From sequence record OZ035727.1: DNA of 44,005 bases. One strand, written 5' to 3'. The notes under the pieces were generated by a model. It did not search any database and had not been told where the DNA came from. It saw nothing but the letters and a program-made list of their open reading frames with translations. Numbering within the stretch: the first letter of the stretch is position 1; every line of letters starts with the position of its first letter. A program made the position numbers and the translations under genes. Shown in pieces: positions 1 to 44,005 of this stretch. Origin of the DNA: Vectrevirus T205P4.

Positions 1-46
1 TAATAAGTTCAAGATTTGGAGAGAGAAGCGTGAGCGTACACAATAA
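1..46 (+). CDS. Possible 3' end of the holin gene that begins at 43857 (valid only if window end and start are contiguous in the real genome)
   Basis: The 43857 ORF runs off the window end in frame; continuing at base 1 gives ...YNKFKIWREKRERTQ and a stop at 44-46, a basic tail like that of T7 gp17.5. Inference only. Confidence 0.3.
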   Translation, partial: NKFKIWREKRERTQ

Positions 47-329
47 ACATGCAGCTACAGAGGATGAGGTTGGCATTCTGCATGGTGCTATTACCAAAAT
101 CTTCAATAAGAAAGCACAGGCAATACTGGACACTATAGAAGAAGACCCTGATGCAGCATTACATTTAGTGTCTGGTAAGGATATTGGTGCGATGTGTAAG
201 TGGGTTCTTGATAACGGCATTACCGCCACACCTGCTGCACAGCAGGAAGAGTCCAAGTTATCTAAGCGCCTCAAGGCTATCCGAGAGGCATCCAGTGGTA
301 AGATAATTCAATTCACTAAGGAGGATTGA
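30..329 (+). CDS. Terminase small subunit (DNA maturase A-like), 99 aa, GTG start
   Basis: GGAGAGAGAAG RBS before GTG at 30; 4-nt overlap with the large terminase gene; size and position match T7 gp18-type. No motif-level confirmation. Confidence 0.55.
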   Translation: MSVHNKHAATEDEVGILHGAITKIFNKKAQAILDTIEEDPDAALHLVSGKDIGAMCKWVLDNGITATPAAQQEESKLSKRLKAIREASSGKIIQFTKED

Positions 330-2968: not shown

Positions 2969-3313
2969 ATGCTTAACAAATACTTCAAGCGTAAAGAGTT
3001 CGCTTGCCGTTGTGGGTGCGGTACATCCACTGTTGATGCTGAATTACTACAGGTAGTCACAGATGTGCGTGAGCACTTTGGTTCTCCTGTAGTTATCACT
3101 TCGGGGCATCGCTGTGCTAAGCACAATGCTAATGTAGGAGGAGCTAAGAACTCCATGCATCTTACTGGTAAGGCTGCTGACATTAAGGTACGAGGTATCT
3201 TACCTTCTGATGTACATAAGTATCTTACTGATAAGTACCAAGGCAAGTATGGTATTGGTAAGTATACCTCCTTTACTCATATTGATGTACGTAACGGGTG
3301 TGCACGATGGTAG
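2969..3313 (+). CDS. Endolysin, zinc peptidase M15-type (L-alanyl-D-glutamate peptidase-like), about 115 aa
   Basis: Motifs SGHRCxxHN ... GGAxNSxH ... AADI ... H-x-D typical of M15 peptidases; ATG at 2969 with AAGGGGA RBS (the track ORF starts further upstream at 2915). Confidence 0.8.
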   Translation: MLNKYFKRKEFACRCGCGTSTVDAELLQVVTDVREHFGSPVVITSGHRCAKHNANVGGAKNSMHLTGKAADIKVRGILPSDVHKYLTDKYQGKYGIGKYTSFTHIDVRNGCARW

Positions 3314-3421: not shown

Positions 3422-3571
3422 ATGAAAAAGCTGTTCAAATCTAAGAAGGTTGTAGGTGCACTAGTTGCATTGGCAATTGCTCTTGTTTCTGTAGGTCTTG
3501 GTGTAGACCTTGGCTCTGGCACGGAATCCTCTGTGACAGACGTGGTCTGCCAAGTGATCACCTGTGAATAA
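3422..3571 (+). CDS. Small membrane protein, 49 aa (MKKLFKSKKVVGALVALAIALVSVGLGV...); possible holin/antiholin-type lysis protein
   Basis: AAGGGAGA RBS 5 nt before ATG; basic N-terminus followed by one hydrophobic helix; below the ORF-track size cutoff. Confidence 0.45.
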   Translation: MKKLFKSKKVVGALVALAIALVSVGLGVDLGSGTESSVTDVVCQVITCE

Positions 3572-3785
3572 GTTTCTAGAAGTGCTGGCAGGTCTTATTG
3601 GCCTGCTTGCCTCTGCTAAGAAGAAACAAGAAGAGAAGGAGGCACAAAGTGAAGCGAATCAGGTTAGTGACAATCCTGCTGATTGGTTCGCTGACCACTT
3701 CCGGGTGTCAGCAGGCGTTACCAGAGAAAGCAATGGTGAAACCTCTGAGGCCGACGCTGACGGAAGTTTACGAGGTAGACGATAA
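3564..3785 (+). CDS. Putative i-spanin (Rz-like), 73 aa, GTG start
   Basis: N-terminal transmembrane segment (FLEVLAGLIGLLASA) then a charged region; overlaps the lipoprotein ORF in another frame. Short for an i-spanin. Confidence 0.4.
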   Translation: MNKFLEVLAGLIGLLASAKKKQEEKEAQSEANQVSDNPADWFADHFRVSAGVTRESNGETSEADADGSLRGRR

Positions 3786-3858
3786 GGTCTGCTTTAGTAA
3801 GCCTGACGCTACAAAATTAGGTTTGTATATTCTTTCGCTAGAACGCGGATATAATTAA
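3649..3858 (+). CDS. Putative o-spanin (Rz1-like outer-membrane lipoprotein), about 69 aa, GTG start
   Basis: AAGGAGG RBS 6 nt before GTG at 3649; signal peptide with lipobox-like LTTSGC; overlaps the 3564 ORF in the +1 frame, as in T7 18.5/18.7 (T7 Rz1 lipobox ISGC). Confidence 0.55.
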   Translation: MKRIRLVTILLIGSLTTSGCQQALPEKAMVKPLRPTLTEVYEVDDKVCFSKPDATKLGLYILSLERGYN

Positions 3859-3989: not shown

Positions 3990-5888
3990 ATGGCTAAATT
4001 AACCAAACCTAATACTGAAGGAATCTTGCATAAAGGACAATCTTTGTATGAGTACCTTGATGCGAGAGTTTTAACATCAAAGCCGTTTGGTGCTGTAGGT
4101 GACGCCACTACTGATGATACGGAGGTTATAGCTGCTTCATTAAACTCTCAGAAAGCTGTCACAATCTCAGACGGTGTATTCTCTAGCTCTGGTATTAATA
4201 GTAATTACTGTAACTTAGACGGTAGAGGTAGTGGGGTGCTAAGTCACCGTTCCAGTGCAGGTAACTACTTAGTATTTAACAATCCACGTACAGGTCGCTT
4301 AAGTAATATTACGGTAGAAAGTAATAAGGCGACTGATACAACTCAGGGACAGCAGGTATCTCTTGCTGGTGGAAGTGATGTTACTGTAAGTGACGTTAAC
4401 TTCTCAAACGTTAAAGGTACTGGTTTCAGTTTAATCGCATACCCTAATGATGCGCCACCTGATGGACTTATGATTAAAGGCATTCGAGGTAGCTATTCAG
4501 GCTATGCTACTAATAAGGCAGCCGGATGCGTACTTGCTGACTCCTCAGTTAACTCCCTCATAGATAACGTCATTGCTAAGAACTACCCTCAGTTCGGAGC
4601 AGTAGAGTTGAAAGGTACAGCCAGTTACAACATAGTCAGTAATGTTATAGGGGCAGATTGCCAGCATGTAACTTACAACGGCACCGAAGGGCCAATAGCT
4701 CCTTCTAATAACCTTATCAAGGGGGTGATGGCTAATAACCCTAAGTATGCAGCGGTTGTTGCAGGCAAAGGAAGTACGAACTTAATCTCAGACGTGCTTG
4801 TAGATTACTCAACTTCTGATGCTAGGCAGGCTCATGGTGTTACCGTAGAAGGGTCTGATAACGTCATAAATAATGTGCTTATGTCAGGATGTGATGGTAC
4901 TAACTCTTTAGGACAAGGGCAGACCGCTACAATTGCACGCTTTATAGGTACAGCTAATAACAACTATGCGTCTGTATTTCCTAGCTACAGTGCTACAGGT
5001 GTTATTACTTTCGAATCCGGCTCTACCCGTAACTTCGTAGAGGTAAAGCACCCTGGCAGGAGAAACGACCTTCTCAGTTCTGCTAGTACTATTGACGGTG
5101 CAGCTACTATTGACGGCACTAATAATAGTAACGTAGTACACGCACCTGCATTAGGGCAGTACATAGGTAGTATGTCAGGTAGGTTCGAATGGCGGATTAA
5201 GTCCATGTCACTCCCTTCAGGCGTTCTTACTTCTGCTGATAAGTACAGAATGCTTGGGGATGGTGCTGTATCATTAGCTGTAGGTGGGGGTACTTCTTCT
5301 CAAGTTCGCCTATTTACTTCTGATGGTACTTCTCGGACAGTGGCCCTCACCAACGGTAACGTGCGTCTTTCTACCAGTAGCACAGGCTATTTGCAGTTAG
5401 GTGCTGATGCAATGACCCCAGATAGTACTGGTACATACGCATTAGGTTCCGCCAGTCGAGCATGGTCTGGAGGTTTTACTCAAGCAGCATTCACTGTTAC
5501 ATCAGATGCTCGGTGTAAAACAGAACCTCTTACTATCTCAGATGCCTTACTGGATGCTTGGTCTGAAGTTGACTTTGTGCAGTTTCAGTATTTGGATCGT
5601 GTTGAGGAGAAGGGTGCAGACTCAGCTAGATGGCACTTTGGCATCATCGCTCAGCGAGCTAAGGAGGCTTTCGAACGCCACGGTATAGATGCACATCGCT
5701 ATGGCTTCTTGTGCTTCGACAGTTGGGATGATGTATACGAGGAAGATGCCAATGGCTCTCGTAAACTGATTACACCAGCAGGTTCCCGCTACGGTATTCG
5801 TTACGAGGAAGTGCTGATATTAGAGGCTGCGTTGATGCGGAGGACTATTAAGCGTATGCAGGAAGCACTAGCTTCCCTGCCTAAGTAA
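3990..5888 (+). CDS. Tailspike protein 1 (632 aa): beta-helix depolymerase with C-terminal intramolecular chaperone domain; K5-lyase/endosialidase-type architecture
   Basis: AGGAGA RBS before ATG at 3990 (MAKLTKPNTEG...); repetitive beta-helix-like middle; C-terminal SDARCK...RWHFGIIAQRAKEAFERHGID...YEEVLILEA resembles the autocleaving chaperone domain of endosialidase/K5 lyase tailspikes. Confidence 0.88.
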   Translation: MAKLTKPNTEGILHKGQSLYEYLDARVLTSKPFGAVGDATTDDTEVIAASLNSQKAVTISDGVFSSSGINSNYCNLDGRGSGVLSHRSSAGNYLVFNNPRTGRLSNITVESNKATDTTQGQQVSLAGGSDVTVSDVNFSNVKGTGFSLIAYPNDAPPDGLMIKGIRGSYSGYATNKAAGCVLADSSVNSLIDNVIAKNYPQFGAVELKGTASYNIVSNVIGADCQHVTYNGTEGPIAPSNNLIKGVMANNPKYAAVVAGKGSTNLISDVLVDYSTSDARQAHGVTVEGSDNVINNVLMSGCDGTNSLGQGQTATIARFIGTANNNYASVFPSYSATGVITFESGSTRNFVEVKHPGRRNDLLSSASTIDGAATIDGTNNSNVVHAPALGQYIGSMSGRFEWRIKSMSLPSGVLTSADKYRMLGDGAVSLAVGGGTSSQVRLFTSDGTSRTVALTNGNVRLSTSSTGYLQLGADAMTPDSTGTYALGSASRAWSGGFTQAAFTVTSDARCKTEPLTISDALLDAWSEVDFVQFQYLDRVEEKGADSARWHFGIIAQRAKEAFERHGIDAHRYGFLCFDSWDDVYEEDANGSRKLITPAGSRYGIRYEEVLILEAALMRRTIKRMQEALASLPK

Positions 5889-32801: not shown

Positions 32802-33539
32802 ATGCCTGTAATTAAACAAACCAGTAAAGTAGGGCACATGATGGAAGATGTGGCCTTCCAGATTATTGATAGCAAGCTTGAAGCGGTCAACTTGTGTATG
32901 CGAGCTATTGGTCGTGAGGGTGTGGATTCTCTCGACTCAGGCGATCTTGATGCAGAAGATGCAAGTAAGATGATTGATATTGTATCCCAGCGCTTCCAGT
33001 ATAACAAAGGCGGTGGCTGGTGGTTCAATCGTGAACCTAACTGGCAGCTTGCACCAGACACGAACGGTGAGATTAACTTGCCTAATAACTGCCTAGCTGT
33101 ATTGCAGTGCTACGCATTGGGTGAGAAGAAAGTGCCTATGACTATGCGAGCAGGTAAGCTCTACTCTACTTGGAGTCACACCTTTGATATGCGTAAGCAT
33201 GTTAATGCTAATGGTATGATTCGTCTTACCTTACTCACCTTACTACCCTACGAGCATCTACCTACAAGTGTAATGCAGGCTATTGCCTATCAAGCTGCTG
33301 TAGAGTTTATTGTGTCTAAGGATGCAGATCAGACTAAGCTAGCCACTGCGCAGCAGATAGCCACTCAGCTTCTTATGGATGTACAATCTGAGCAAATGTC
33401 ACAGAAGCGATTAAACATGCTGGTACATAACCCCACTCAGCGTCAGTTTGGTATCATGGCTGGTGGCTCTCAGAATGTACCTGCTTACTCTCATTCACCT
33501 TATGAAAGTTGGGCGCTCCGTCCGTGGGAGGATCGTTAA
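32802..33539 (+). CDS. Tail tubular protein A (gp11-like), about 245 aa
   Basis: AGGAGG RBS before ATG at 32802; position before tail tubular protein B. Confidence 0.8.
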   Translation: MPVIKQTSKVGHMMEDVAFQIIDSKLEAVNLCMRAIGREGVDSLDSGDLDAEDASKMIDIVSQRFQYNKGGGWWFNREPNWQLAPDTNGEINLPNNCLAVLQCYALGEKKVPMTMRAGKLYSTWSHTFDMRKHVNANGMIRLTLLTLLPYEHLPTSVMQAIAYQAAVEFIVSKDADQTKLATAQQIATQLLMDVQSEQMSQKRLNMLVHNPTQRQFGIMAGGSQNVPAYSHSPYESWALRPWEDR

Positions 33540-35941
33540 TGGAAGTACAAGGTTCATTAGGTAGACAAATCCAAGGGATTAGCCAGCAGCCTCCAGCGGT
33601 ACGTCTTGATGGTCAATGTACGACTATGGTGAACATGGTCCCTGATGTAGTGAATGGAACTCAATCCCGCATGGGTACAACTCACATTGCTAAGCTCTTG
33701 GATGAAGGTACAGATAATATGGCAACGCACCATTATCGCAGGGGTGAGGGAGATGAAGAGTATTTCTTCACCTTAAAGAAGGGGCAAGTGCCAGAGATAT
33801 TTGATAAGCATGGACGCAAGTGCAATGTCATCTCTCAAGATGCACCTATTGCCTACCTTTCTGAAGTTGTTAACCCTAGGGAAGATGTGCAATTCATGAC
33901 TATAGCTGATGTTACTTTTATGCTTAACCGTAGGAAAGTGGTTAAAGTTAGTAATAGGAAGTCACCTAAAGTTGGAGATAAAGCCATTGTGTTTTGTGCA
34001 TATGGTCAATACGGTACATCTTATTCCATTGTAATTAATGGGGCCAACGCTGCTAGTTTTAAAACACCGGATGGTGGAAGTGCAGACCATGTTGAACAAA
34101 TTCGAACTGAACGTATCACTTCTGAATTGTACTCTAAGTTGCAGCAATGGAGCGGTGTGAGTGACTATGAAATACAAAGAGACGGTACTAGTATATTTAT
34201 CGAGAGACGGGATGGTGCTAGCTTTACAATAACAACCACCGATGGTGCAAAAGGTAAGGACTTAGTGGCTATCAAGAATAAAGTTAGCTCTACTGACCTA
34301 CTCCCTTCTCGTGCTCCTGCTGGTTATAAAGTACAAGTGTGGCCTACTGGCAGCAAACCTGAGTCTCGTTACTGGCTGCAAGCTGAGCCTAAAGAGGGAA
34401 ACCTTGTATCTTGGAAAGAAACAATAGCTGCCGATGTATTACTTGGGTTTGATAAAGGCACAATGCCTTACATTATTGAACGTACAGGTATCATCAACGG
34501 CATAGCTCAATTCAAGATAAGACAAGGTGATTGGGAAGATCGTAAAGTAGGGGATGACTTGACTAACCCTATGCCCTCTTTTATTGATGAGGAAGTACCC
34601 CAGACAATAGGTGGAATGTTCATGGTGCAGAACCGCCTATGCTTTACAGCAGGTGAAGCGGTTATTGCTTCTCGTACATCATACTTCTTCGATTTCTTTC
34701 GTTATACGGTTATCTCTGCATTGGCAACTGACCCATTTGATATTTTCTCAGATGCTAGCGAAGTCTACCAGCTAAAACATGCAGTGACCTTAGATGGCGC
34801 TACCGTGTTGTTCTCTGATAAGTCACAATTCATACTGCCAGGCGATAAGCCTTTAGAGAAGTCAAATGCATTGCTTAAGCCTGTTACAACATTTGAAGTG
34901 AACAATAAAGTGAAGCCAGTAGTAACTGGTGAATCGGTAATGTTTGCCACTAATGATGGTTCTTACTCTGGTGTACGAGAGTTCTATACAGACTCTTATA
35001 GTGACACTAAGAAGGCACAAGCAATCACAAGTCATGTGAATAAACTCATCGAAGGTAACATTACCAACATGGCAGCAAGCACCAATGTCAACAGGTTACT
35101 TGTCACTACCGATAAGTATCGTAACATAATCTACTGCTACGATTGGTTATGGCAAGGAACAGACCGTGTACAATCAGCATGGCATGTATGGAAGTGGCCT
35201 ATAGGTACAAAGGTGCGAGGTATGTTTTATTCTGGTGAATTACTTTACCTGCTCCTTGAGCGAGGGGATGGCGTATATCTGGAGAGGATGGACATGGGTG
35301 ATGCACTAACCTACGGTTTGAATGACCGCATCAGAATGGATAGGCAAGCAGAGTTAGTCTTCAAGTATTTTAAAGCAGAAGATGAATGGGTGTCTGAACC
35401 GCTTCCTTGGACTCCTACTAACCCAGAACTTTTAGATTGCATCTTAATCGAGGGTTGGGATTCATATATTGGTGGCTCTTTCTTATTCAAGTACAACCCT
35501 AGTGACAATACTTTGTCTACAACCTTTGATATGTATGATGACAGTCATGTAAAAGCGAAGGTTATTGTTGGTCAGATTTACCCTCAAGAGTTTGAACCTA
35601 CACCTGTGGTTATCAGAGACAATCAAGACCGTGTATCCTATATTGATGTACCAGTTGTAGGATTGGTTCACCTTAATCTTGACATGTACCCCGATTTCTC
35701 CGTAGAAGTTAAGAATGTGAAGAGTGGTAAAGTACGTAGAGTATTAGCGTCAAACCGTATAGGTGGTGCTCTCAATAATACAGTAGGCTATGTTGAACCG
35801 AGAGAAGGTGTCTTCAGATTTCCACTGAGAGCTAAGAGCACGGATGTTGTTTATCGTATTATTGTAGAGGCACCCCATACATTCCAGCTTCGTGATATTG
35901 AGTGGGAAGGGAGCTACAATCCAACCAAAAGGAGGGTCTAA
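33539..35941 (+). CDS. Tail tubular protein B (gp12-like), about 800 aa
   Basis: N-terminal GISQQP motif as in T7 gp12; TAATG coupling to the upstream gene. Confidence 0.88.
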   Translation: MEVQGSLGRQIQGISQQPPAVRLDGQCTTMVNMVPDVVNGTQSRMGTTHIAKLLDEGTDNMATHHYRRGEGDEEYFFTLKKGQVPEIFDKHGRKCNVISQDAPIAYLSEVVNPREDVQFMTIADVTFMLNRRKVVKVSNRKSPKVGDKAIVFCAYGQYGTSYSIVINGANAASFKTPDGGSADHVEQIRTERITSELYSKLQQWSGVSDYEIQRDGTSIFIERRDGASFTITTTDGAKGKDLVAIKNKVSSTDLLPSRAPAGYKVQVWPTGSKPESRYWLQAEPKEGNLVSWKETIAADVLLGFDKGTMPYIIERTGIINGIAQFKIRQGDWEDRKVGDDLTNPMPSFIDEEVPQTIGGMFMVQNRLCFTAGEAVIASRTSYFFDFFRYTVISALATDPFDIFSDASEVYQLKHAVTLDGATVLFSDKSQFILPGDKPLEKSNALLKPVTTFEVNNKVKPVVTGESVMFATNDGSYSGVREFYTDSYSDTKKAQAITSHVNKLIEGNITNMAASTNVNRLLVTTDKYRNIIYCYDWLWQGTDRVQSAWHVWKWPIGTKVRGMFYSGELLYLLLERGDGVYLERMDMGDALTYGLNDRIRMDRQAELVFKYFKAEDEWVSEPLPWTPTNPELLDCILIEGWDSYIGGSFLFKYNPSDNTLSTTFDMYDDSHVKAKVIVGQIYPQEFEPTPVVIRDNQDRVSYIDVPVVGLVHLNLDMYPDFSVEVKNVKSGKVRRVLASNRIGGALNNTVGYVEPREGVFRFPLRAKSTDVVYRIIVEAPHTFQLRDIEWEGSYNPTKRRV

Positions 35942-36687
35942 TGGCTATAGGTTCAGCCGTTATGGCTGGTATGTCTTCTATTGGTAGTATGTTTGCAGGT
36001 AGCGGTACAGCAGCCGCTGCTGGTGGTACTGCCGCAGCAGCAGGAGGGACAGCCGCCGCAGGTGGCGGAGGTTTGCTTGGCTCCCTTGGTAGTTTCTTAG
36101 GAGGTTCTTCTGCTGGCTTCTCTAATGCAGGACTGCTTAGTGCAGGTATGCAAGGTCTTGGTCTTCTAGGCAATCTTTTTGGTGGAAGTGATGAAGCCAA
36201 AGCTATGAAGAAAGCTCAGGAGGAGCAATGGCGGCAGCAGTTAATTGCTACACAAGAAGCATATAAGACAGTGGCAGATGCAGAACGCTCTGCTGCTAAA
36301 CAGTATCATGCGGATGCAATAAGCAATCAGGCTTCACTGCTACAGCAAAGAGCGCAGGTTGCACTACTTGCAGGTGCAACTGGCACTGGTGGTAACTCTA
36401 TATCTTCTATGCTGAATGACTTAGCAGCAGAGGGCGGGAGGAACCAGAGTACAATTATTGATAACTATGAGAATCAGAAGATTAACTTCACCAATCAGCT
36501 TAAGTCTATCCAGCGAGGTGGACAGATGCAGATGCGTGAGTTTAAGAAGCCTTCTGCCGTGAGCACCTTGGTGCAAGGTATACCGAGTCTGGCATCTGCC
36601 TATGTAACAGGTAGTAAGTCCGGCATGGCTTTAGGTAAAGCTTTAACTGATTCTCGTACATATTCATCTGGAACAAGAGGTATTTAA
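35941..36687 (+). CDS. Internal virion protein (gp14-like, Gly/Ala-rich N-terminus), about 249 aa
   Basis: AGGAGGG RBS; first of three internal-core genes. Confidence 0.7.
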   Translation: MAIGSAVMAGMSSIGSMFAGSGTAAAAGGTAAAAGGTAAAGGGGLLGSLGSFLGGSSAGFSNAGLLSAGMQGLGLLGNLFGGSDEAKAMKKAQEEQWRQQLIATQEAYKTVADAERSAAKQYHADAISNQASLLQQRAQVALLAGATGTGGNSISSMLNDLAAEGGRNQSTIIDNYENQKINFTNQLKSIQRGGQMQMREFKKPSAVSTLVQGIPSLASAYVTGSKSGMALGKALTDSRTYSSGTRGI

Positions 36688-39635
36688 TGGCAATTGAGCG
36701 ACAAGCAGTACAAGGTCTGCCACAAGTGCAGGCCACTTCTCCTAATGTCATGACCTTTGCACCTCAGCGAGTTGGAGGTGTGGAGGCTGGCGTAGCTTCT
36801 ACCTCCGGTAGTCGATTTATCGAAGACCTTATTCGAGCAGCCAGTAGTGTAGCTGATGTAACCACTGGTATCCTTAATCAAAAGATTGAGGAAGATAAGG
36901 TTGTTCAAATGGAACGGGCATATAACGGATTAATGCCTTCTGAGGATGCAACTCGTGGTGGCGCTCGTGCTAACATGCTTGTCAAAGCTCAACTGCTAGC
37001 TAATGATGAAGCAGCACGAATGAAAGACATGGCTACTCGTTTCCAAGGAACGGATGACGAGTGGACACAACTTATGGTTGACTCTCGTAATGAGATGCAG
37101 AATAAGCTGTTCCAGCAATACCCTGAGTTGCAAGGTGACAAAGATACTATGCGTATGGTCACTAATGTCTTCCAAGAACAGCAGCCTCAGATTTGGGCTA
37201 CACGAACCCAGCATAAACTTGACCGTGAACAAGCAGACCGTGAGGATACCTTTGACGGGCGAGTGGCTTCTACTTGGGATTCTAATATTGACCCTGAAGC
37301 CTCTGGCTATGCTTTACAGGAACGAATCCGCGAAGGTCTTACTCAAGGATTACTACCTGAACAGATGCACAAGAAGTTAGTCCAGCGAGCAATTTCACTT
37401 GCACAAGGCGGTGATGTTAGCATGGCTGAAGCCCTGAAGTATGTGAAGGACGATAAGGGTGTTTCTGTTTATGCTAAGAATCCACAGCTTATCACAGCCA
37501 TCACTAGTGGTAATGCAGTTTGGGCTAGGAATAATGTAGCTGATGTAACTCGTATGTCTTTCGAAGTTAAAGAATCCTACCTTGCAGGTGATTTAACTGA
37601 TGAAGAATTGTTGGAACGAGCACAGCACATTAATAATCTGACAGGTAACTCTGTCTTCTCTAATCCAGAGCTAGAGGCACTGATGCGCCAACGGGCTAAG
37701 CAGAATGCAGAGCTAGGTGCAATGCAGGATATGCGACGTGAGCTTTACTCCGACCGCCTGACTGGCTTCCAAGGTAAGACTGATAAAGAGAAGAAGGCTT
37801 ACATTGATGTTATCAAACAAGATAGCCAACTTTATGCAGACCAGCAAATCAAACAACGTGGCTTGGACCCTTACAGTCAAGAGGCTGAAGCTATTCGTGG
37901 TGCAGTGGAAGTGCAGCGCCTACAATTCATGAACTCCAAAGGCTTAGTGGATGATACCTTTGAGTCTCGTATCAAAGCCATGGAATCTATGCTATCGCCT
38001 GAGCACTTTGCCAAGGGCGAACCACAAGAGTTGATGACTATTCGCCAGTTGTGGGAACAGTTGCCAGAAGAGAGCCGAGGTGTCTTTGGTGACACGGTGA
38101 ATGGCTACATGGATAACTACAACACTGCACTACAAATGGGAGAGACACCTTTGCAGGCTGCAAGGTTTGCGCGTGAAGCACAGCAGAAATTCTCTCGTAC
38201 TGAGAAGGAAACCAAGAAGTTCAACTCAGCTATTGGAGAGGCACTGGATGAGGTGTCTGGTGCTGGCTGGTTTGATGGTAAAACCGAAGTGTCAGACTTA
38301 GGTAAAGCTATTGCGGAAGAAGAGTTACGAGCTAAGGCCAATATGTTGTGGTCTAGTGGTATGCGTAACATGGATTCCATCAAGAAGGCTTTAATTACTT
38401 GGGGCAATAAACGCTACACTCAATCAGAGGATGCAAAGACTTCCGGTGGCTATTTCATTAAAGGTGATTACACTTCTGCATCTGATATGCTTATGTCAGT
38501 TGGGAAAGGCGTAAACCCTACCGATGTACCTCTGGCGCTTGGTAGGTATGTAGAAACACAGATGCCAGAATTGAAGAAGGAGCTTCAAGAGTGGGAAACT
38601 AAAGATGATATATACATTGATTACAATGAACAGAAAGGAACTTTTGTGATTCGTGCTGGTGCAGCAGGTCGCCCTCTTTCTGGAGTAATCCCTGTAACCT
38701 CTTTAGATACTACTTCACTACTAGATTCTGCCTATCAGAAGAAAGTAGAGGAACGAGATAAAGGCGAGTATGTTCACCCGTATCGTACAGATATTGGTGC
38801 ACAAGAGCCTATGCCAGCTAAACCAACTGCCAAAGATATTGGTAAATTTGGACTAGCTAACTTCCTCATGTCTTCTGCTTTTGCTTCTGGTGAGAATCTG
38901 CCTTCTAACTTCGAGATTAACTATCGAGGTAATATGCAACAATTCTATGACAAGCTAGCTATGGATGAGAATAAAGATAAAGTTGGCTTTAATAAGGCAA
39001 CTGGAACCTTTACTCCATATAAAGACGCTCACGGTGAGTCTATCGGTTACGGTCATTTCTTAACGGAAGAAGAGAAGCGAAACGGGTATATTAAGATTGG
39101 CGATGAACTAGTTCCCTATCGAGGGTCTATGTCTCAGCTTACAGAGAGCAAGGCTCGCGCCCTTATGGAGCAAGATGCTAAGAAGCATGTGCCTCCTACT
39201 CGTGACTGGAAGATTCCGTTTGACCAGATGCATCCTGCACAGCAACGTGGCTTGATGGATTTAACCTACAATTTAGGTAAAGGTGGAATCCAGAACTCAC
39301 CGCGTGCTCTTGCTGCATTCAAAGCTGGTAAGCTTACGGAGGGTTTTATCGAAATGCTGGGCACTGCATCAAGTGAAGGTAAGCGTATTCCTGGCCTACT
39401 GAAGCGACGCGCTGAGGCATACAATATGGCATCTGCTGGTGGTGTGCCTAAGATTACCGAAGTGGAGACTCGTGAAGATGGCTCCATGTGGGTTAGGTTT
39501 GGTGGACCTATGCCAGCAGGTTCTGTCTCGGCATGGACTCATAAACGTATTGGCGCGGATGGTTGGTATCAGGTTTATGAGGCTGCACCTACCAAGTTAG
39601 CTAAAGGTTCTAAGGTAGGTAAAGTTAAGTTGTAG
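36687..39635 (+). CDS. Internal virion (ejection) protein with C-terminal lysozyme-like peptidoglycan hydrolase domain, 982 aa
   Basis: C-terminal region ESIGYGHFLT ... LMDLTYNLGKGG ... GKRIPGLLKRRAEAY resembles T4/lambda-type lysozyme folds. Confidence 0.8.
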   Translation: MAIERQAVQGLPQVQATSPNVMTFAPQRVGGVEAGVASTSGSRFIEDLIRAASSVADVTTGILNQKIEEDKVVQMERAYNGLMPSEDATRGGARANMLVKAQLLANDEAARMKDMATRFQGTDDEWTQLMVDSRNEMQNKLFQQYPELQGDKDTMRMVTNVFQEQQPQIWATRTQHKLDREQADREDTFDGRVASTWDSNIDPEASGYALQERIREGLTQGLLPEQMHKKLVQRAISLAQGGDVSMAEALKYVKDDKGVSVYAKNPQLITAITSGNAVWARNNVADVTRMSFEVKESYLAGDLTDEELLERAQHINNLTGNSVFSNPELEALMRQRAKQNAELGAMQDMRRELYSDRLTGFQGKTDKEKKAYIDVIKQDSQLYADQQIKQRGLDPYSQEAEAIRGAVEVQRLQFMNSKGLVDDTFESRIKAMESMLSPEHFAKGEPQELMTIRQLWEQLPEESRGVFGDTVNGYMDNYNTALQMGETPLQAARFAREAQQKFSRTEKETKKFNSAIGEALDEVSGAGWFDGKTEVSDLGKAIAEEELRAKANMLWSSGMRNMDSIKKALITWGNKRYTQSEDAKTSGGYFIKGDYTSASDMLMSVGKGVNPTDVPLALGRYVETQMPELKKELQEWETKDDIYIDYNEQKGTFVIRAGAAGRPLSGVIPVTSLDTTSLLDSAYQKKVEERDKGEYVHPYRTDIGAQEPMPAKPTAKDIGKFGLANFLMSSAFASGENLPSNFEINYRGNMQQFYDKLAMDENKDKVGFNKATGTFTPYKDAHGESIGYGHFLTEEEKRNGYIKIGDELVPYRGSMSQLTESKARALMEQDAKKHVPPTRDWKIPFDQMHPAQQRGLMDLTYNLGKGGIQNSPRALAAFKAGKLTEGFIEMLGTASSEGKRIPGLLKRRAEAYNMASAGGVPKITEVETREDGSMWVRFGGPMPAGSVSAWTHKRIGADGWYQVYEAAPTKLAKGSKVGKVKL

Positions 39636-39699: not shown

Positions 39700-42600
39700 A
39701 TGGAACAAGACATTAAGACTAATTGGGCTGGATATGTCCAGTCTACTCCTGAGCCGTTTTCTATTGAGGCGGCTCCGGTATCGGCTCCTACGATACGCCA
39801 GCGTAATGAGTTACAAGAGCAAGTTCTTGAAGCTAAAGCTGACGCTGATATTTTAGGTGCTGTAGGTGCTGCCTTCCAGAATGAGTGGTTGGCATTCGGA
39901 GGCAAGCGGTGGTATGACCGTGCCACTGCTGATTTCACACCTCAACCAGACTTTGAGATACAACCTGAGCAACGTGAAGCACTACGTTTCAAATATGGTA
40001 CGGATATGATGCAGACAATCACTGAGGGTGTTCGTTCTGAGGATGAATTGAACTTCCGTATTCAGAATGCTGATGAAGATCTTGAGCGCAATAAGCGCAT
40101 TGCTCAGGCTGGCTGGGTTGGCTCTGTGGCGACGATTGGCGCTGCTGTGCTTGACCCTGTGGGATGGGTTGCCTCTATTCCAACCGGTGGTGCCGCTAAA
40201 GTTGGACTCGTAGGCCGTGCTGTGCGTGGCGCTATCGCCGCTGGCGTGAGTAATGCCGCTATTGAATCCATATTGGTCCAAGGTGACATGACTCGTGATT
40301 TAGATGACATTATGGTAGCACTAGGTTCCGGTATGGCTATGGGTGGCGTTATTGGCGCTGTAGCGCGTGGTAGGGCCGCTAAGCTCAGTGAGCAAGGTGA
40401 TGACAGGGCTGCGAACGTTGTGCGCAGTGCAGACGCAGGGGACCGCTATGTTCGTGCTGTTGCCGATGACAGTATCGGTGCGATGCGTGTTAAGGGCGCA
40501 GAGGTTCTAACTGAGGGTGCATTCGATATCTCCAGTAAGGGTGAAGACCTACTGAAAACCTTGCAACGAGAAGGTAATGCGATTGATATGACACCTCGCC
40601 GTTGGGCTGGAACTTTGTCTGCCCTCGGTACTGTCGTGCACTCATCTAAAGATGCAAGCATCCGAGGCCTTGGTGCTCGTCTGTTTGAATCCCCACAAGG
40701 TCTAGGTATGCAGAAGGCATCTGCTAGTCTTATGCAGAATACTAACTTAAATCGCCTGAAGTCTGCCGATATGAACCGTTTTAATGATGGATTTGATTTG
40801 TGGCTTAAAGAGAATAATATCAACCCAGTAGCAGGGCATACCAACTCTCATTATGTACAGCAATACAATGAAAAGGTGTGGGAGGCAGTGCGTATTGGCA
40901 TGGATGAGTCTACACCTAAATCTATCCGCATGGCTGCTGAGGGACAACAGGCTATGTACAGAGAGGCGCTGGCTTTACGTCAACGTTCTGGTGAAGCGGG
41001 ATTTGAAAAGGTAAAAGCCGACAACAAATATATGCCTGATATCTTTGATAGTATGAAAGCCAGACGTCAATTCGATATGCACGATAAAGAAGACATCATC
41101 GAACTTTTCTCTCGTGCCTACCAGAATGGCGCTCGTAAGATTCCAAAGGAAGCAGCAGATGAGATTGCACGAGCACAGGTAAATCGCGTTGCTGATGCTA
41201 CCTTAACTGGAAAGCTTAGTTTTGAAAAGGCAATGTCAGGTCAGACTAAGGCAGAGTATGAAGCTATCATGCGTAAGGCAGGCTTCAGTGATGAAGAAAT
41301 TGAAAAGATGATAGAAGCTCTGGATAACAAAGAAACCAGAGATAACATCTCTAACCGAGCTAAAATGAGTTTAGGATTAGATGTTACTCAAGAATACAAT
41401 GGCATTCGTATGCGTGACTTCATGAATACCAACGTGGAAGAGCTAACAGATAACTATATGAAGGAAGCAGCAGGTGGCGCTGCATTGGCTCGCCAAGGCT
41501 TCTCTACCTATCAGGCTGCACTTAATGCAATTGACCTTGTAGAGCGAAATGCACGAAACGCGGCTAAGGATAGCAAGGCTAGTTTGGCATTAGATGAAGA
41601 GATTCGTCAGATGCGAGAAGGTCTTCGCCTGATTATGGGCAAGTCGATTGATGCAGACCCACAAGCTATATCTACTAAGATGATGCGTCGTGGTCGTGAT
41701 ATCACAGGTGTGCTTCGCTTAGGTCAGATGGGCTTCGCACAGCTAGGTGAACTTGCTAACTTCATGGGTGAGTTTGGTATTGCTGCCACCACTATGGCTT
41801 TAGGTAAGCAATTCCGCTTCACCTCTAAGGCGTTGCGTAATGGCGATGGCTTCTTTCGAGATAAGAATTTAGCTGAGGTTGAGCGAATGGTAGGTTACAT
41901 CGGTGAGGATAACTGGCTAACAACTAAGGGTGCGCGTCCAGATGAGTTTGGTGATGTAACCACAGTGCGAGGTATGATGGCCCATTTTGACCAGTCCATG
42001 AACTCTATACGACGTGCTCAGACAAACCTATCCCTCTTCCGCATGGCACAGGGTTCTCTGGAGCGAATGACCAATAGGCAAATAGCTTTGTCTTTCATTG
42101 ACCACCTTGAAGGCAAGAAGATTATTCCTCAGAAGAAACTGGAGGAACTTGGTCTTACTCAGGAGTTCATGACTAACCTACAGAAGCACTATGATGCTAA
42201 CTCTAAAGGTTCTGGCTTGCTTGGCTTTGATACAATGCCTTATGCCATGGGTGAAACTTTAGCTAATGCTATTCGTCGTAAGTCAGGTCTAATTATCCAA
42301 CGTAACTTCATTGGTGATGAAGGTATCTGGATGAACAAAGCACTAGGTAAGACATTTGCACAGCTTAAGTCATTCTCTCTTGTATCTGGTGAGAAGCAAT
42401 TTGGTCGAGGGATTCGCCACGATAAGATTGGTCTAGCTAAGAAGACAGCCTTTGGCTTTGCTTTGGGTTCGATGGTGTATGCAGCGAAAGCCTATGTGAA
42501 CTCTATTGGACGAGAAGACCAAGATGAATATCTGGAAGAGAAGTTATCGCCTAAAGGGTTGGCCTTTGGTGCAATGGGTATGATGAGTACAACTGCTGTA

Positions 42601-42885
42601 TTTAGTCTAGGTGGAGATTTCTTAGGTGGCCTAGGTGTTCTACCTTCTGAGTTAGTACAATCCCGTTATGAGGCTGGCTTTCAGACTAAGGGTTTGATAG
42701 ACCAAATACCACTAGTAGGTGTTGGTCAAGATGCATATCGTTTAGCAGATTCTATAACTAAATATGCAGAGGGTGATACAGAAGGTGTAGATGTGGCACG
42801 TAGGGCTTTACGCTTAGTGCCTCTAACTAATGTAATAGGAATCCAGAACGCATTGCGTTATGGCTTAGATGAACTGGAGGATTGA
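39700..42885 (+). CDS. Large internal virion (ejection/core) protein, 1061 aa
   Basis: GGAGGA RBS; size and position of the largest T7-group core protein. Confidence 0.8.
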   Translation: MEQDIKTNWAGYVQSTPEPFSIEAAPVSAPTIRQRNELQEQVLEAKADADILGAVGAAFQNEWLAFGGKRWYDRATADFTPQPDFEIQPEQREALRFKYGTDMMQTITEGVRSEDELNFRIQNADEDLERNKRIAQAGWVGSVATIGAAVLDPVGWVASIPTGGAAKVGLVGRAVRGAIAAGVSNAAIESILVQGDMTRDLDDIMVALGSGMAMGGVIGAVARGRAAKLSEQGDDRAANVVRSADAGDRYVRAVADDSIGAMRVKGAEVLTEGAFDISSKGEDLLKTLQREGNAIDMTPRRWAGTLSALGTVVHSSKDASIRGLGARLFESPQGLGMQKASASLMQNTNLNRLKSADMNRFNDGFDLWLKENNINPVAGHTNSHYVQQYNEKVWEAVRIGMDESTPKSIRMAAEGQQAMYREALALRQRSGEAGFEKVKADNKYMPDIFDSMKARRQFDMHDKEDIIELFSRAYQNGARKIPKEAADEIARAQVNRVADATLTGKLSFEKAMSGQTKAEYEAIMRKAGFSDEEIEKMIEALDNKETRDNISNRAKMSLGLDVTQEYNGIRMRDFMNTNVEELTDNYMKEAAGGAALARQGFSTYQAALNAIDLVERNARNAAKDSKASLALDEEIRQMREGLRLIMGKSIDADPQAISTKMMRRGRDITGVLRLGQMGFAQLGELANFMGEFGIAATTMALGKQFRFTSKALRNGDGFFRDKNLAEVERMVGYIGEDNWLTTKGARPDEFGDVTTVRGMMAHFDQSMNSIRRAQTNLSLFRMAQGSLERMTNRQIALSFIDHLEGKKIIPQKKLEELGLTQEFMTNLQKHYDANSKGSGLLGFDTMPYAMGETLANAIRRKSGLIIQRNFIGDEGIWMNKALGKTFAQLKSFSLVSGEKQFGRGIRHDKIGLAKKTAFGFALGSMVYAAKAYVNSIGREDQDEYLEEKLSPKGLAFGAMGMMSTTAVFSLGGDFLGGLGVLPSELVQSRYEAGFQTKGLIDQIPLVGVGQDAYRLADSITKYAEGDTEGVDVARRALRLVPLTNVIGIQNALRYGLDELED

Positions 42886-43856: not shown

Positions 43857-44005
43857 ATGATTAACTCCGAACTGGTAGATAGTGGTGTGAAGCTTGCGCC
43901 ACCTGCACTCGTATCAGGTGGGTACTTCCTCGGTATCAGTTGGGATAATTGGGTGTTAATAGCAACATTCATTTATACCGTGTTGCAAATTGGGGACTGG
44001 TTTTA
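43857..44005 (+). CDS. Holin, T7 gp17.5-like (class II), 5' part; ORF runs off the window end
   Basis: AAGGAGG RBS; ...ATFIYTVLQIGDWF aligns with T7 holin ...AAIAYTVVQIGAKV as I recall it. Confidence 0.7.
   Translation, partial: MINSELVDSGVKLAPPALVSGGYFLGISWDNWVLIATFIYTVLQIGDWF

Follow-up and report, generated by a model that had tools for sequence, protein, structure and literature searches.

Which protein of a K1-5-like phage opens the cell wall when the DNA enters, and where on that protein does the enzyme sit? The question is raised by a 982-aa open reading frame in Vectrevirus T205P4, whose sequence OZ035727.1 (44,005 nt, the window of this study) is a complete K1-5-like coliphage genome. 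The original prediction took this frame for an internal virion protein with a lysozyme-like domain, and proposed that the activity found in T7 on the N-terminal transglycosylase of gp16 sits here on a different core protein and at the opposite end, through domain shuffling within the ejectosome. Our analysis indicates that the gp15-like tunnel ejection protein gp35 very probably carries, fused into its C-terminal part at residues ~746-915, a T4-type (GH24) muramidase that is catalytically competent and opens the cell wall at DNA entry. A lysozyme on the gp15-like protein of K1-5-like phages is already known; the observation is real but ordinary.

Gene order and the carrier protein

The genes that bear on the identity of the carrier are the following.

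33509..35941: nozzle gene (Pfam PF25675), upstream of the gp14-like gene
35902..36687, plus strand: T7 gp14-family internal virion protein gene, K1-5 gp34 (Pfam PF24072 T7_gp14, E = 3.3e-32; phrog_805, E = 2.4e-51; K1-5 annotation)
36687..39635, plus strand: gp35 gene, 982-aa internal virion (ejection) protein, orthologue of K1-5 gp35 / YP_654136.1 and of SP6 gp36
39700..42885, plus strand: gp16-like internal virion protein gene, 1061 aa, K1-5 gp36 (phrog_342, E = 7.3e-249)

The gp35 frame thus lies in the gp15 position, since the order runs from the nozzle gene (PF25675) through the T7_gp14 gene (PF24072) and gp35 to the phrog_342 gene. Judged from K1-5, the gp14-like gene probably begins at the ATG at 35965, and its stop codon shares one nucleotide with the ATG of gp35. 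This gene also has a Gly/Ala-rich stretch, in which Tandem Repeats Finder found no repeats. The gp35 frame shows 99.7% nucleotide identity to Vectrevirus T145P2, and its product matches phrog_4290 ('lysozyme domain-containing protein') over the entire length. K1-5 gp35 (YP_654136.1, 109 kDa; 'Gp38' in the RefSeq numbering), which is itself annotated 'lysozyme domain-containing protein', has the same length and the same neighbours and is identical at 975 of 982 residues; only one of the seven substitutions, T860S, falls in the lysozyme domain.

The AlphaFold2 model divides the part of gp35 that precedes the lysozyme domain in two.

36687..38762, plus strand: N-terminal region, aa 1-692, nearly all α-helical and resembling the T7 gp15 periplasmic-tunnel protein (AlphaFold2 and Foldseek)
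38763..38921, plus strand: low-confidence linker, aa 693-745, from the helical body to the lysozyme domain (the full-length model has pLDDT 40-60 at aa ~690-740)

When the full-length model was compared with the PDB by Foldseek, the top three matches were all gp15 chains (T7 gp15 9jyy_G, E = 1.5e-6; E1004 Gp28 9vvp_K, E = 9.1e-4; T7 gp15 7eyb_A, E = 1.2e-3). These alignments span 706-734 columns at a probability of 1.00, but their TM-scores are only 0.16-0.26; low values are expected of long flexible helical proteins, yet the match is weak all the same. At the level of sequence, hhalign of aa 1-740 against T7 gp15 with a 30-sequence profile found no homology (probability 0.1%), the same profile searched against the PDB retrieved lysozymes only and no T7 core protein, and aa 1-740 taken alone gave no Pfam match at E≤10. 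The N-terminal ~700 residues of the model would therefore resemble T7 gp15 by fold and not by sequence, and the gp15-like assignment is based on fold together with gene order. These data support gp35 as the core protein in the gp15 position and not as a gp16 homologue.

The gp16 counterpart is the neighbouring 1061-aa protein, assigned by PHROG and BLASTP. BLASTP aligns its residues 89-574 with 275-794 of T7 gp16 (E = 0.002) and its residues 881-1007 with 1100-1253 (E = 1e-7); phmmer of this protein against the PDB gave nothing meaningful. Only positions 162-1227 of the 1235 in the phrog_342 profile are covered, and Pfam detects no SLT domain (PF01464) in the 1061 residues, whereas in T7 gp16, used as positive control, SLT is found at aa 15-127 (E = 1.7e-31), just where the original prediction had located the T7 enzyme. 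With SLT missing and the profile match starting at position 162, the phage lacks the T7 gp16-type arrangement. The proposal that the activity resides on another core protein and at the opposite end is hence borne out, as the carrier is gp15-like by gene order and fold and its gp16-like neighbour is without SLT.

The lysozyme domain and its probable active site

38922..39431, plus strand: GH24 / T4-type lysozyme (muramidase) domain, aa ~746-915 (Pfam, AlphaFold2 model, Foldseek)

A lysozyme-like domain had been expected at 38950-39450, an interval that corresponds to gp35 aa 755-922, and a profile search of the C-terminal region had been suggested as a check. Pfam indeed finds the lysozyme family there: PF00959 (Phage_lysozyme) matches aa 776-910 with E = 2.2e-10 and 41.4 bits, where the gathering score is 22.3, and covers positions 9-124 of 125 in the profile. 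T4 lysozyme was recovered from the PDB by phmmer with gp35 (E = 5.6e-4) and with the 30-sequence profile (E = 1.4e-4), and hhalign of gp35 against T4 lysozyme gave a probability of 88% (E = 2.9e-6). AlphaFold2 modelled aa 740-982 with a pLDDT of 92.2 and a pTM of 0.86, and the best Foldseek matches of this model in the PDB are all GH24 enzymes with a probability of 1.00, namely the R21 endolysin of phage 21 (3hde), the DLP12 endolysin (4zpu), T4 lysozyme and the muramidases 8b2s and 9kbq; TM-scores normalised to the target are 0.58-0.71, over ~180 aligned columns that span all of T4 lysozyme. The agreement of several independent methods rules out a chance resemblance to lysozymes.

The frame contains all three motifs on which the domain was first recognised. 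ESIGYGHFLT occupies aa 784-793 (nt 39036-39065), LMDLTYNLGKGG spans aa 856-867 (nt 39252-39287), and aa 898-912 (nt 39378-39422) read GKRIPGLLKRRAEAY. The location in the C-terminal part of gp35 also holds, with two corrections: the domain starts slightly upstream, with a helix at aa 746-762, and it lies near the end of the protein and not at it, because a conserved β-rich module of ~65 residues (aa 916-982) follows.

For the active site, conservation was read from homologues of gp35, of which a full-length query gave 29 that were usable, while a query with the C-terminal 272 residues returned three fragments only. The residues concerned are:

38967..38969, plus strand: codon of E761 in MDEN, proposed as catalytic Glu and as equivalent of T4 lysozyme E11; Glu in 30/30 homologues
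39024..39026, plus strand: codon of D780, which phmmer and hhalign align with T4 lysozyme D20; Asp in 28/30 homologues
39039..39041, plus strand: codon of S785 (aligned to T4 lysozyme T26); Ser or Thr in 27/30 homologues

The Asp and the Ser/Thr are conserved, so that the domain is of the T4 type (a hydrolase) and not of the lambda type (a lytic transglycosylase). Of the 'T4/lambda-type' first proposed, the T4 half is thus retained, on these two positions and the GH24 fold, and the lambda half is not.

E761 is probably the catalytic Glu. It lies where the first helix of the domain (aa 746-762) ends, and N762 after it is likewise invariant in 30/30 homologues. The MAFFT and hhalign alignments of gp35 with T4 lysozyme, like the Pfam match, begin past this residue, which is left unaligned with E11 because of a 10-residue insertion; a 15-residue loop after E761 brings the Glu-to-Tyr spacing to 17, against the canonical 7. 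Relatives show spacings of 7, 9 and 17, and we infer the assignment from this series together with the invariance of E761 and its place in the secondary structure. A catalytic Glu had been part of the original prediction, which holds for the invariant E761; if the Glu of ESIGYGH was meant, it does not, as E784 is variable and is Glu in only 9/30 homologues. The residue for functional mutation is consequently E761 (with D780) and not the Glu of ESIGYGH.

Entry, lysis and conservation of the enzyme

In the mechanism that we propose, the internal capsid core would hold gp35 alongside its gp14-like and gp16-like partners, on the model of T7 and of the Ar-KM cryo-EM work. After adsorption the gp14-like protein, gp35 and the gp16-like protein would leave through the tail, in an order modelled on T7 and the phiKMV-like phages; the gp14-like protein would form the outer-membrane pore, and gp35 would assemble into a tube across the periplasm, on the same analogy. 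The lysozyme domain would cut MurNAc-GlcNAc bonds locally, at a site of action likewise taken by analogy, giving the tube and the gp16-like protein access to the inner membrane, and it would do the job of the N-terminal lytic transglycosylase of T7 gp16 that is missing from the gp16-like protein here. The muralytic domain of T7 is dispensable under standard conditions, and the contribution of the gp35 lysozyme may therefore be conditional. Of this scheme, the lysozyme fold with its conserved residues, the order of the genes, the resemblance of the N-terminal body to gp15 in fold, the absence of SLT and the presence of a dedicated endolysin were computed here, and the muralytic activity associated with K1-5 and SP6 virions is drawn from the literature.

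[quoted passage not shown] We consider this improbable for T205P4, however, in view of a second set of genes.

2969..3313, plus strand: endolysin, Peptidase_M15_3, 114 aa from the ATG at 2969 (Pfam PF08291, E = 1.2e-32; phrog_894 'endolysin', E = 2.7e-45)
3422..3858: small membrane-type ORFs
43857 across the junction to nt 46: holin gene

The K1-5 orthologue of the M15 gene carries an endolysin annotation, and with a dedicated endolysin encoded, gp35 need not be the lysis enzyme. The holin gene and the small membrane-type ORFs near the endolysin also speak against dual use, as does the later recognition of the SP6 orthologue, gp46, as an M15 peptidase (PMC4837284). In gp35 itself no export signal is recognisable, and its first 92 residues are predicted to be disordered and are not hydrophobic.

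It is more improbable still that the enzyme has degenerated, the lysozyme fold being kept only as a non-catalytic structural or peptidoglycan-binding module of the tunnel. The unusual distance from the proposed catalytic Glu to the β-hairpin (17 residues versus 7) would fit such a loss, and the activity of gp35 in T205P4 is a prediction from sequence. Yet E761, D780 and S/T785 are kept in homologues down to 38% identity, and the lysozyme domain is the most conserved segment of gp35, with 54-67% identity compared with 31-40% over aa 1-700 (26 homologues, P0007-P0032), which points to selection on an enzyme. Moreover, PMC5380687 lists virion-associated lysozyme activity for the K1-5 protein, which is nearly identical, and gives a measured muralytic activity of 4800 U/mg for the C-terminal domain of phiKMV gp36 (gp36C). 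A recent horizontal insertion of the domain was also considered and rejected: none of the 29 full-length homologues (overall identity 38-98%) lacks the domain, and the remainder of gp35 is less conserved. It is found at the same position of gp35 in 153 phage records, with Escherichia, Salmonella, Klebsiella, Proteus, Erwinia and Pectobacterium as hosts.

Lytic transglycosylase chemistry of the lambda R kind, yielding 1,6-anhydro-MurNAc in place of hydrolysis, is hardly credible: the enzyme that is functionally replaced, the N-terminus of T7 gp16, is a lytic transglycosylase, and T4 and lambda types had been put in one group at the outset, but conservation extends to D780 and S785, the Asp and Ser/Thr typical of T4-type GH24 hydrolases, the structures closest in fold are hydrolytic lysozymes, and lambda R is not known to have an equivalent of the T4-type Asp.

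The C-terminal module and related systems

39432..39632, plus strand: conserved C-terminal β-rich module, aa 916-982 (~65 aa), with strands at 923-928, 934-938, 960-964 and 978-981 (pLDDT >90)

The module that follows the muramidase has eight invariant residues (I923, D931, G932, S933, M934, F938, G959 and W960) and recurs in the homologue from an Erwinia phage (TM 0.92 over 241 columns); the 70-aa tail searched alone gave no Pfam match at E≤10. In the literature we found no explanation for this module or for the invariant Glu-Asn with its 15-residue loop. In T7 gp16, the N-terminal LT domain directly precedes the 'molecular tape' segment that holds the gp15 tunnel together. The Glu-Asn with its loop and the β module are lineage-specific additions to the lysozyme. 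It is conceivable, though rather doubtful, that they adapt the enzyme to acting while attached to the tunnel, with the β module, for example, docking on the gp16-like protein or anchoring the domain to peptidoglycan. If true, such a role would be a new function inside a known system.

The muramidase itself has close precedents. Table 2 of PMC5380687, citing Moak & Molineux 2004, lists K1-5 YP_654136.1 and SP6 gp36 as virion-associated lysozymes. SP6 gp36 (978 aa) has the same architecture and position as gp35, and its C-terminal 243 residues are 62% identical; its N-terminal body is presumably more diverged, given the 31-40% identity that distant homologues show over aa 1-700. The lysozyme similarity of its C-terminus was noted in 2004 and muralytic activity of the virion was reported, according to statements in PMC4837284 and PMC5380687. 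The gp16-like protein of SP6, gp37, is longer than the one here (1270 versus 1061 aa; PMC8954989). The same 2022 review states that gp35 of K1E and K1-5, a gp15-like protein, contains the lysozyme activity that sits on gp16 in T7 and speaks of 'swapping of functional domains', and its gp15 tree sets the SP6 group apart from T7. The domain shuffling proposed for this locus is thus a well-supported reading that had already been published as domain swapping.

By analogy, the N-terminal SLT domain (PF01464) of T7 gp16 would have the same role in the ejectosome as the gp35 lysozyme, a local opening of peptidoglycan at genome delivery. The two differ in fold (SLT versus GH24), in chemistry (transglycosylase versus hydrolase), in carrier (gp16 versus a gp15-like protein) and in lying at opposite termini.

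The layout of gp35 recurs in phiKMV gp36 and Ar-KM gp42: the middle ejection protein carries a T4-lysozyme-like domain within its final ~200-300 residues, and its gene follows a gp14-like gene and precedes a gp16-like one. Similarity of phiKMV gp36 to gp35 is confined to the catalytic β-hairpin and the next helix, where BLASTP aligns 15 aa (E = 0.003) and hhalign 44 columns (E = 3.3e-6); in phiKMV gp36 the Glu-to-Tyr spacing is the short, canonical one, and the β-hairpin insert of ~20 aa found in gp35 (YIKIGDELVPYRG...) is missing. In the phiKMV-like phage Ar-KM, cryo-EM has revealed the T4-lysozyme-like domain on the gp15-like protein, and in the predicted tunnel this domain points outward and is level with the cell wall, a position comparable to that predicted for the SLT domain of T7 gp16; the layout with lysozyme on the gp15-like protein was counted in 31/127 Autographivirales (2026 preprint, bioRxiv 10.64898/2026.05.18.726046).

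T4 lysozyme (gene e) and the lysozyme domain of T4 gp5, a virion-borne lysozyme used at entry (PMC5380687), have in common with the gp35 domain the fold and the positions of the Asp and the Thr/Ser. Identity of the gp35 domain to T4 lysozyme is ~18-20%, and gp35 adds the 10-residue insertion after the catalytic Glu and the C-terminal β module. The relocated entry enzyme is an example of how the ejection proteins of podophages evolve as mosaics, and has little importance beyond correct annotation. Because of its similarity to T4 lysozyme and gp5, gp35 is misnamed 'baseplate hub subunit' in many GenBank records, recent ones among them, and it should not be annotated as such.

Genome and identity of the lysozyme-bearing protein

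The holin gene crosses the window ends (43857-44005 joined to 1-46; product 64 aa, one residue different from the K1-5 holin) and shares its last 17 nt with the small terminase gene (30..329), the very arrangement of K1-5; the 44,005-bp window therefore holds the entire genome, circularly permuted, of a K1-5-like podophage (Autographiviridae, Molineuxvirinae, Vectrevirus). The ORF at 36687..39635 (+), which encodes a 982-aa predicted internal virion protein, has DNA identities of 99.7% with Vectrevirus T145P2 and 98.9% with Escherichia phage K1-5; its product shares 975/982 aa with K1-5 gp35 (YP_654136.1, 'lysozyme domain-containing protein' in RefSeq), with the lysozyme domain in both. In many recent GenBank records this product is named 'baseplate hub subunit' or 'baseplate hub protein', a name that probably goes back to the resemblance with the lysozyme domain of T4 gp5 and is misleading, because a podophage has no baseplate.

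The lysozyme domain and its active site

The original prediction of a lysozyme resemblance at 38950-39450 (aa 755-922 of the ORF) is borne out by profile, sequence and fold comparisons, and its three motifs are all present (aa 784-793, 856-867 and 898-912). Residues 776-910 match Pfam PF00959 (Phage_lysozyme; E=2.2e-10, well over the gathering score), T4 lysozyme is the top match in PDB sequence searches, and hhalign against T4 lysozyme gave E=2.9e-6. The model of aa 740-982 that AlphaFold2 built from 33 sequences (pLDDT 92, pTM 0.86) has GH24 enzymes throughout as its top PDB fold matches, with probability 1.00 (R21 and DLP12 endolysins, T4 lysozyme, fungal and bacterial GH24 muramidases), and an Erwinia phage orthologue as its top viral match (TM 0.92).

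Conservation at the active site was counted in 30 full-length homologues of 38-98% identity. Alignments to T4 lysozyme pair D780 with D20 and S785 with T26, positions conserved in 28/30 and, as Ser or Thr, in 27/30. E784, the first residue of 'ESIGYGH', is Glu in just 9/30 and is ruled out as the catalytic Glu by this variability. E761, in the motif A-x-x-E-N, is invariant (30/30) and lies at the C-terminal end of the domain's first helix (aa 746-762), the place of E11 in T4 lysozyme; we infer that it is the probable catalytic acid. A 15-residue loop with invariant G767 and G773 comes after E761, so that Glu and Tyr are spaced by 17 rather than 7; because of this 10-residue insertion, none of the sequence alignments to T4 lysozyme reached E761. 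In more remote relatives the spacing is 7, 9 or 17, and the E-[GN] signature is retained. No part of the protein is better conserved than the lysozyme segment: across the 26 more distant homologues (P0007-P0032) its identity is 54-67%, versus 31-40% in the N-terminal 700 residues, which argues for selection on enzymatic function.

Directly after the domain, a confidently modelled β-rich module of ~65 aa (aa 916-982, window 39432-39632) gave no Pfam match, and it is conserved in homologues down to 38% identity, also in Erwinia phage relatives.

Position among the core proteins and role in entry

The gene order around the ORF is as follows.

Genes around the lysozyme-domain ORF
33509..35941, nozzle (PF25675)
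35902..36687 (+), T7 gp14-family protein (PF24072, E=3.3e-32)
36687..39635 (+), 982-aa lysozyme-domain ORF, between the gp14-family and 1061-aa genes
39700..42885 (+), 1061-aa gp16-like protein (phrog_342, E=7e-249)
next after the 39700..42885 gene, tail-fibre/adaptor protein

That the muralytic module sits on a core protein other than the gp16 homologue, as had been proposed, is supported by the gp15-position gene order and by the fold of the whole protein. We found no sequence similarity to T7 gp15 in the N-terminal ~700 residues; the top three PDB fold matches of the full-length model (pLDDT 75), their chain identity checked, are T7 gp15 and a gp15 homologue (9jyy_G, E=1.5e-6; 9vvp_K, E=9.1e-4; 7eyb_A, E=1.2e-3), with >700 aligned columns and low TM-scores of 0.16-0.26. 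The match of the 1061-aa protein to phrog_342 ('internal virion protein with endolysin domain', the T7 gp16 family) starts only at profile position 162, and T7 gp16 aligns with it by BLASTP from residue 275 on. Pfam found no SLT domain in it, and in the T7 gp16 control detected one at aa 15-127 (E=1.7e-31). By these comparisons the gp16 homologue lacks the N-terminal transglycosylase, either through loss or because it was never present. Whereas T7 carries its SLT transglycosylase on the gp16 N-terminus, here the lysozyme lies near the C-terminus of the gp15-position protein; the expected opposite-end placement thus holds, but not at the very end, since aa 916-982 follow. In the N-terminal part of the gp14-like ORF (35902..36687), a Gly/Ala-rich low-complexity stretch (window ~35990-36120, …GTAAAAGGTAAAAGGTAAAGGGG…) precedes the T7_gp14 domain; Tandem Repeats Finder detected no array in it, and the antisense ORF 35859..36200 is an Ala/Pro-rich artefact mirroring it.

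Lysis-related genes in the window
2969..3313 (+), Peptidase_M15_3 endolysin (E=1.2e-32)
3422..3858, small membrane-type ORFs

Because a separate M15 endolysin, a holin and small membrane-type ORFs are encoded, the gp35 lysozyme need not be the lysis enzyme. Its entry mechanism most likely follows, by analogy, the scheme established in T7 and put forward for phiKMV-like phages: all three core proteins would be ejected, the gp15-like protein would build a periplasmic tube, and the attached lysozyme would cut a local opening in the peptidoglycan, allowing the channel to extend to the inner membrane. The older view for SP6, a single muralytic activity serving both entry and lysis, is weakened by the M15 endolysin, recognised later (PMC4837284) and also encoded here. 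The large terminase and endolysin genes are separated by two small paralogous-looking ORFs of 93 and 95 aa (2380-2661 and 2679-2966, +), both containing 'SGKQK[AG]AMV' and 'IAIA(T/R)GS' and without a Pfam match; their K1-5 RefSeq counterparts are annotated 'acetyl-CoA acetyltransferase', which looks implausible for proteins of only ~95 aa.

Precedents, distribution and tailspikes

The lysozyme feature is real and the original interpretation correct, and both were already known. Virion-associated lysins listed in PMC5380687 include K1-5 'Gp38 YP_654136.1, 109 kDa, lysozyme' and SP6 gp36, both citing Moak & Molineux 2004, and phiKMV gp36, whose C-terminal lysozyme domain has measured activity; that the C-terminus of SP6 gp36 resembles lysozyme had been noted in the 2004 genome papers (PMC4837284). 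Domain shuffling, too, was already stated in PMC8954989, which places lysozyme activity on the gp15-like gp35 in K1E and K1-5, versus gp16 in T7, and terms this swapping of functional domains. A 2026 preprint (bioRxiv 10.64898/2026.05.18.726046) describes by cryo-EM a T4-lysozyme-like domain on the gp15-like protein of phiKMV-like Ar-KM, and distinguishes three muralytic placements in 127 Autographivirales (86 at the gp16-like N-terminus, 31 at the gp15-like C-terminus and 10 mid gp15-like). We found the domain at the same position in 153 phage-collection records (phages of Escherichia, Salmonella, Klebsiella, Proteus, Erwinia and Pectobacterium), and among 1.8 billion representative proteins searched there are many of ~900-1000 aa with the domain at the C-terminus. 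The sole additions here are the preference for E761 over E784 as probable catalytic Glu, the insertion after E761 and the C-terminal β module.

Tailspike genes
3990-5888 (+), first tailspike, K5 lyase (98.6% aa identity to K1-5 KflA, 98.9% to phage K5)
5974-7632 (+), second tailspike, 552 aa, N-terminal pectate-lyase-like match

The K5 lyase ends in a Peptidase_S74 intramolecular chaperone domain. The second tailspike is a different protein from the K1 endosialidase that K1-5 carries; it occurs in just one other Vectrevirus of the collection (T205P5, 98.7%), and its next best match is the tail protein of St11Ph5 (89% aa identity), a 72-kb phage of E. coli 4s that we take to be G7C-like. It looks like a gene exchanged between unrelated podophage groups, an exchange that implies a host range other than K1.
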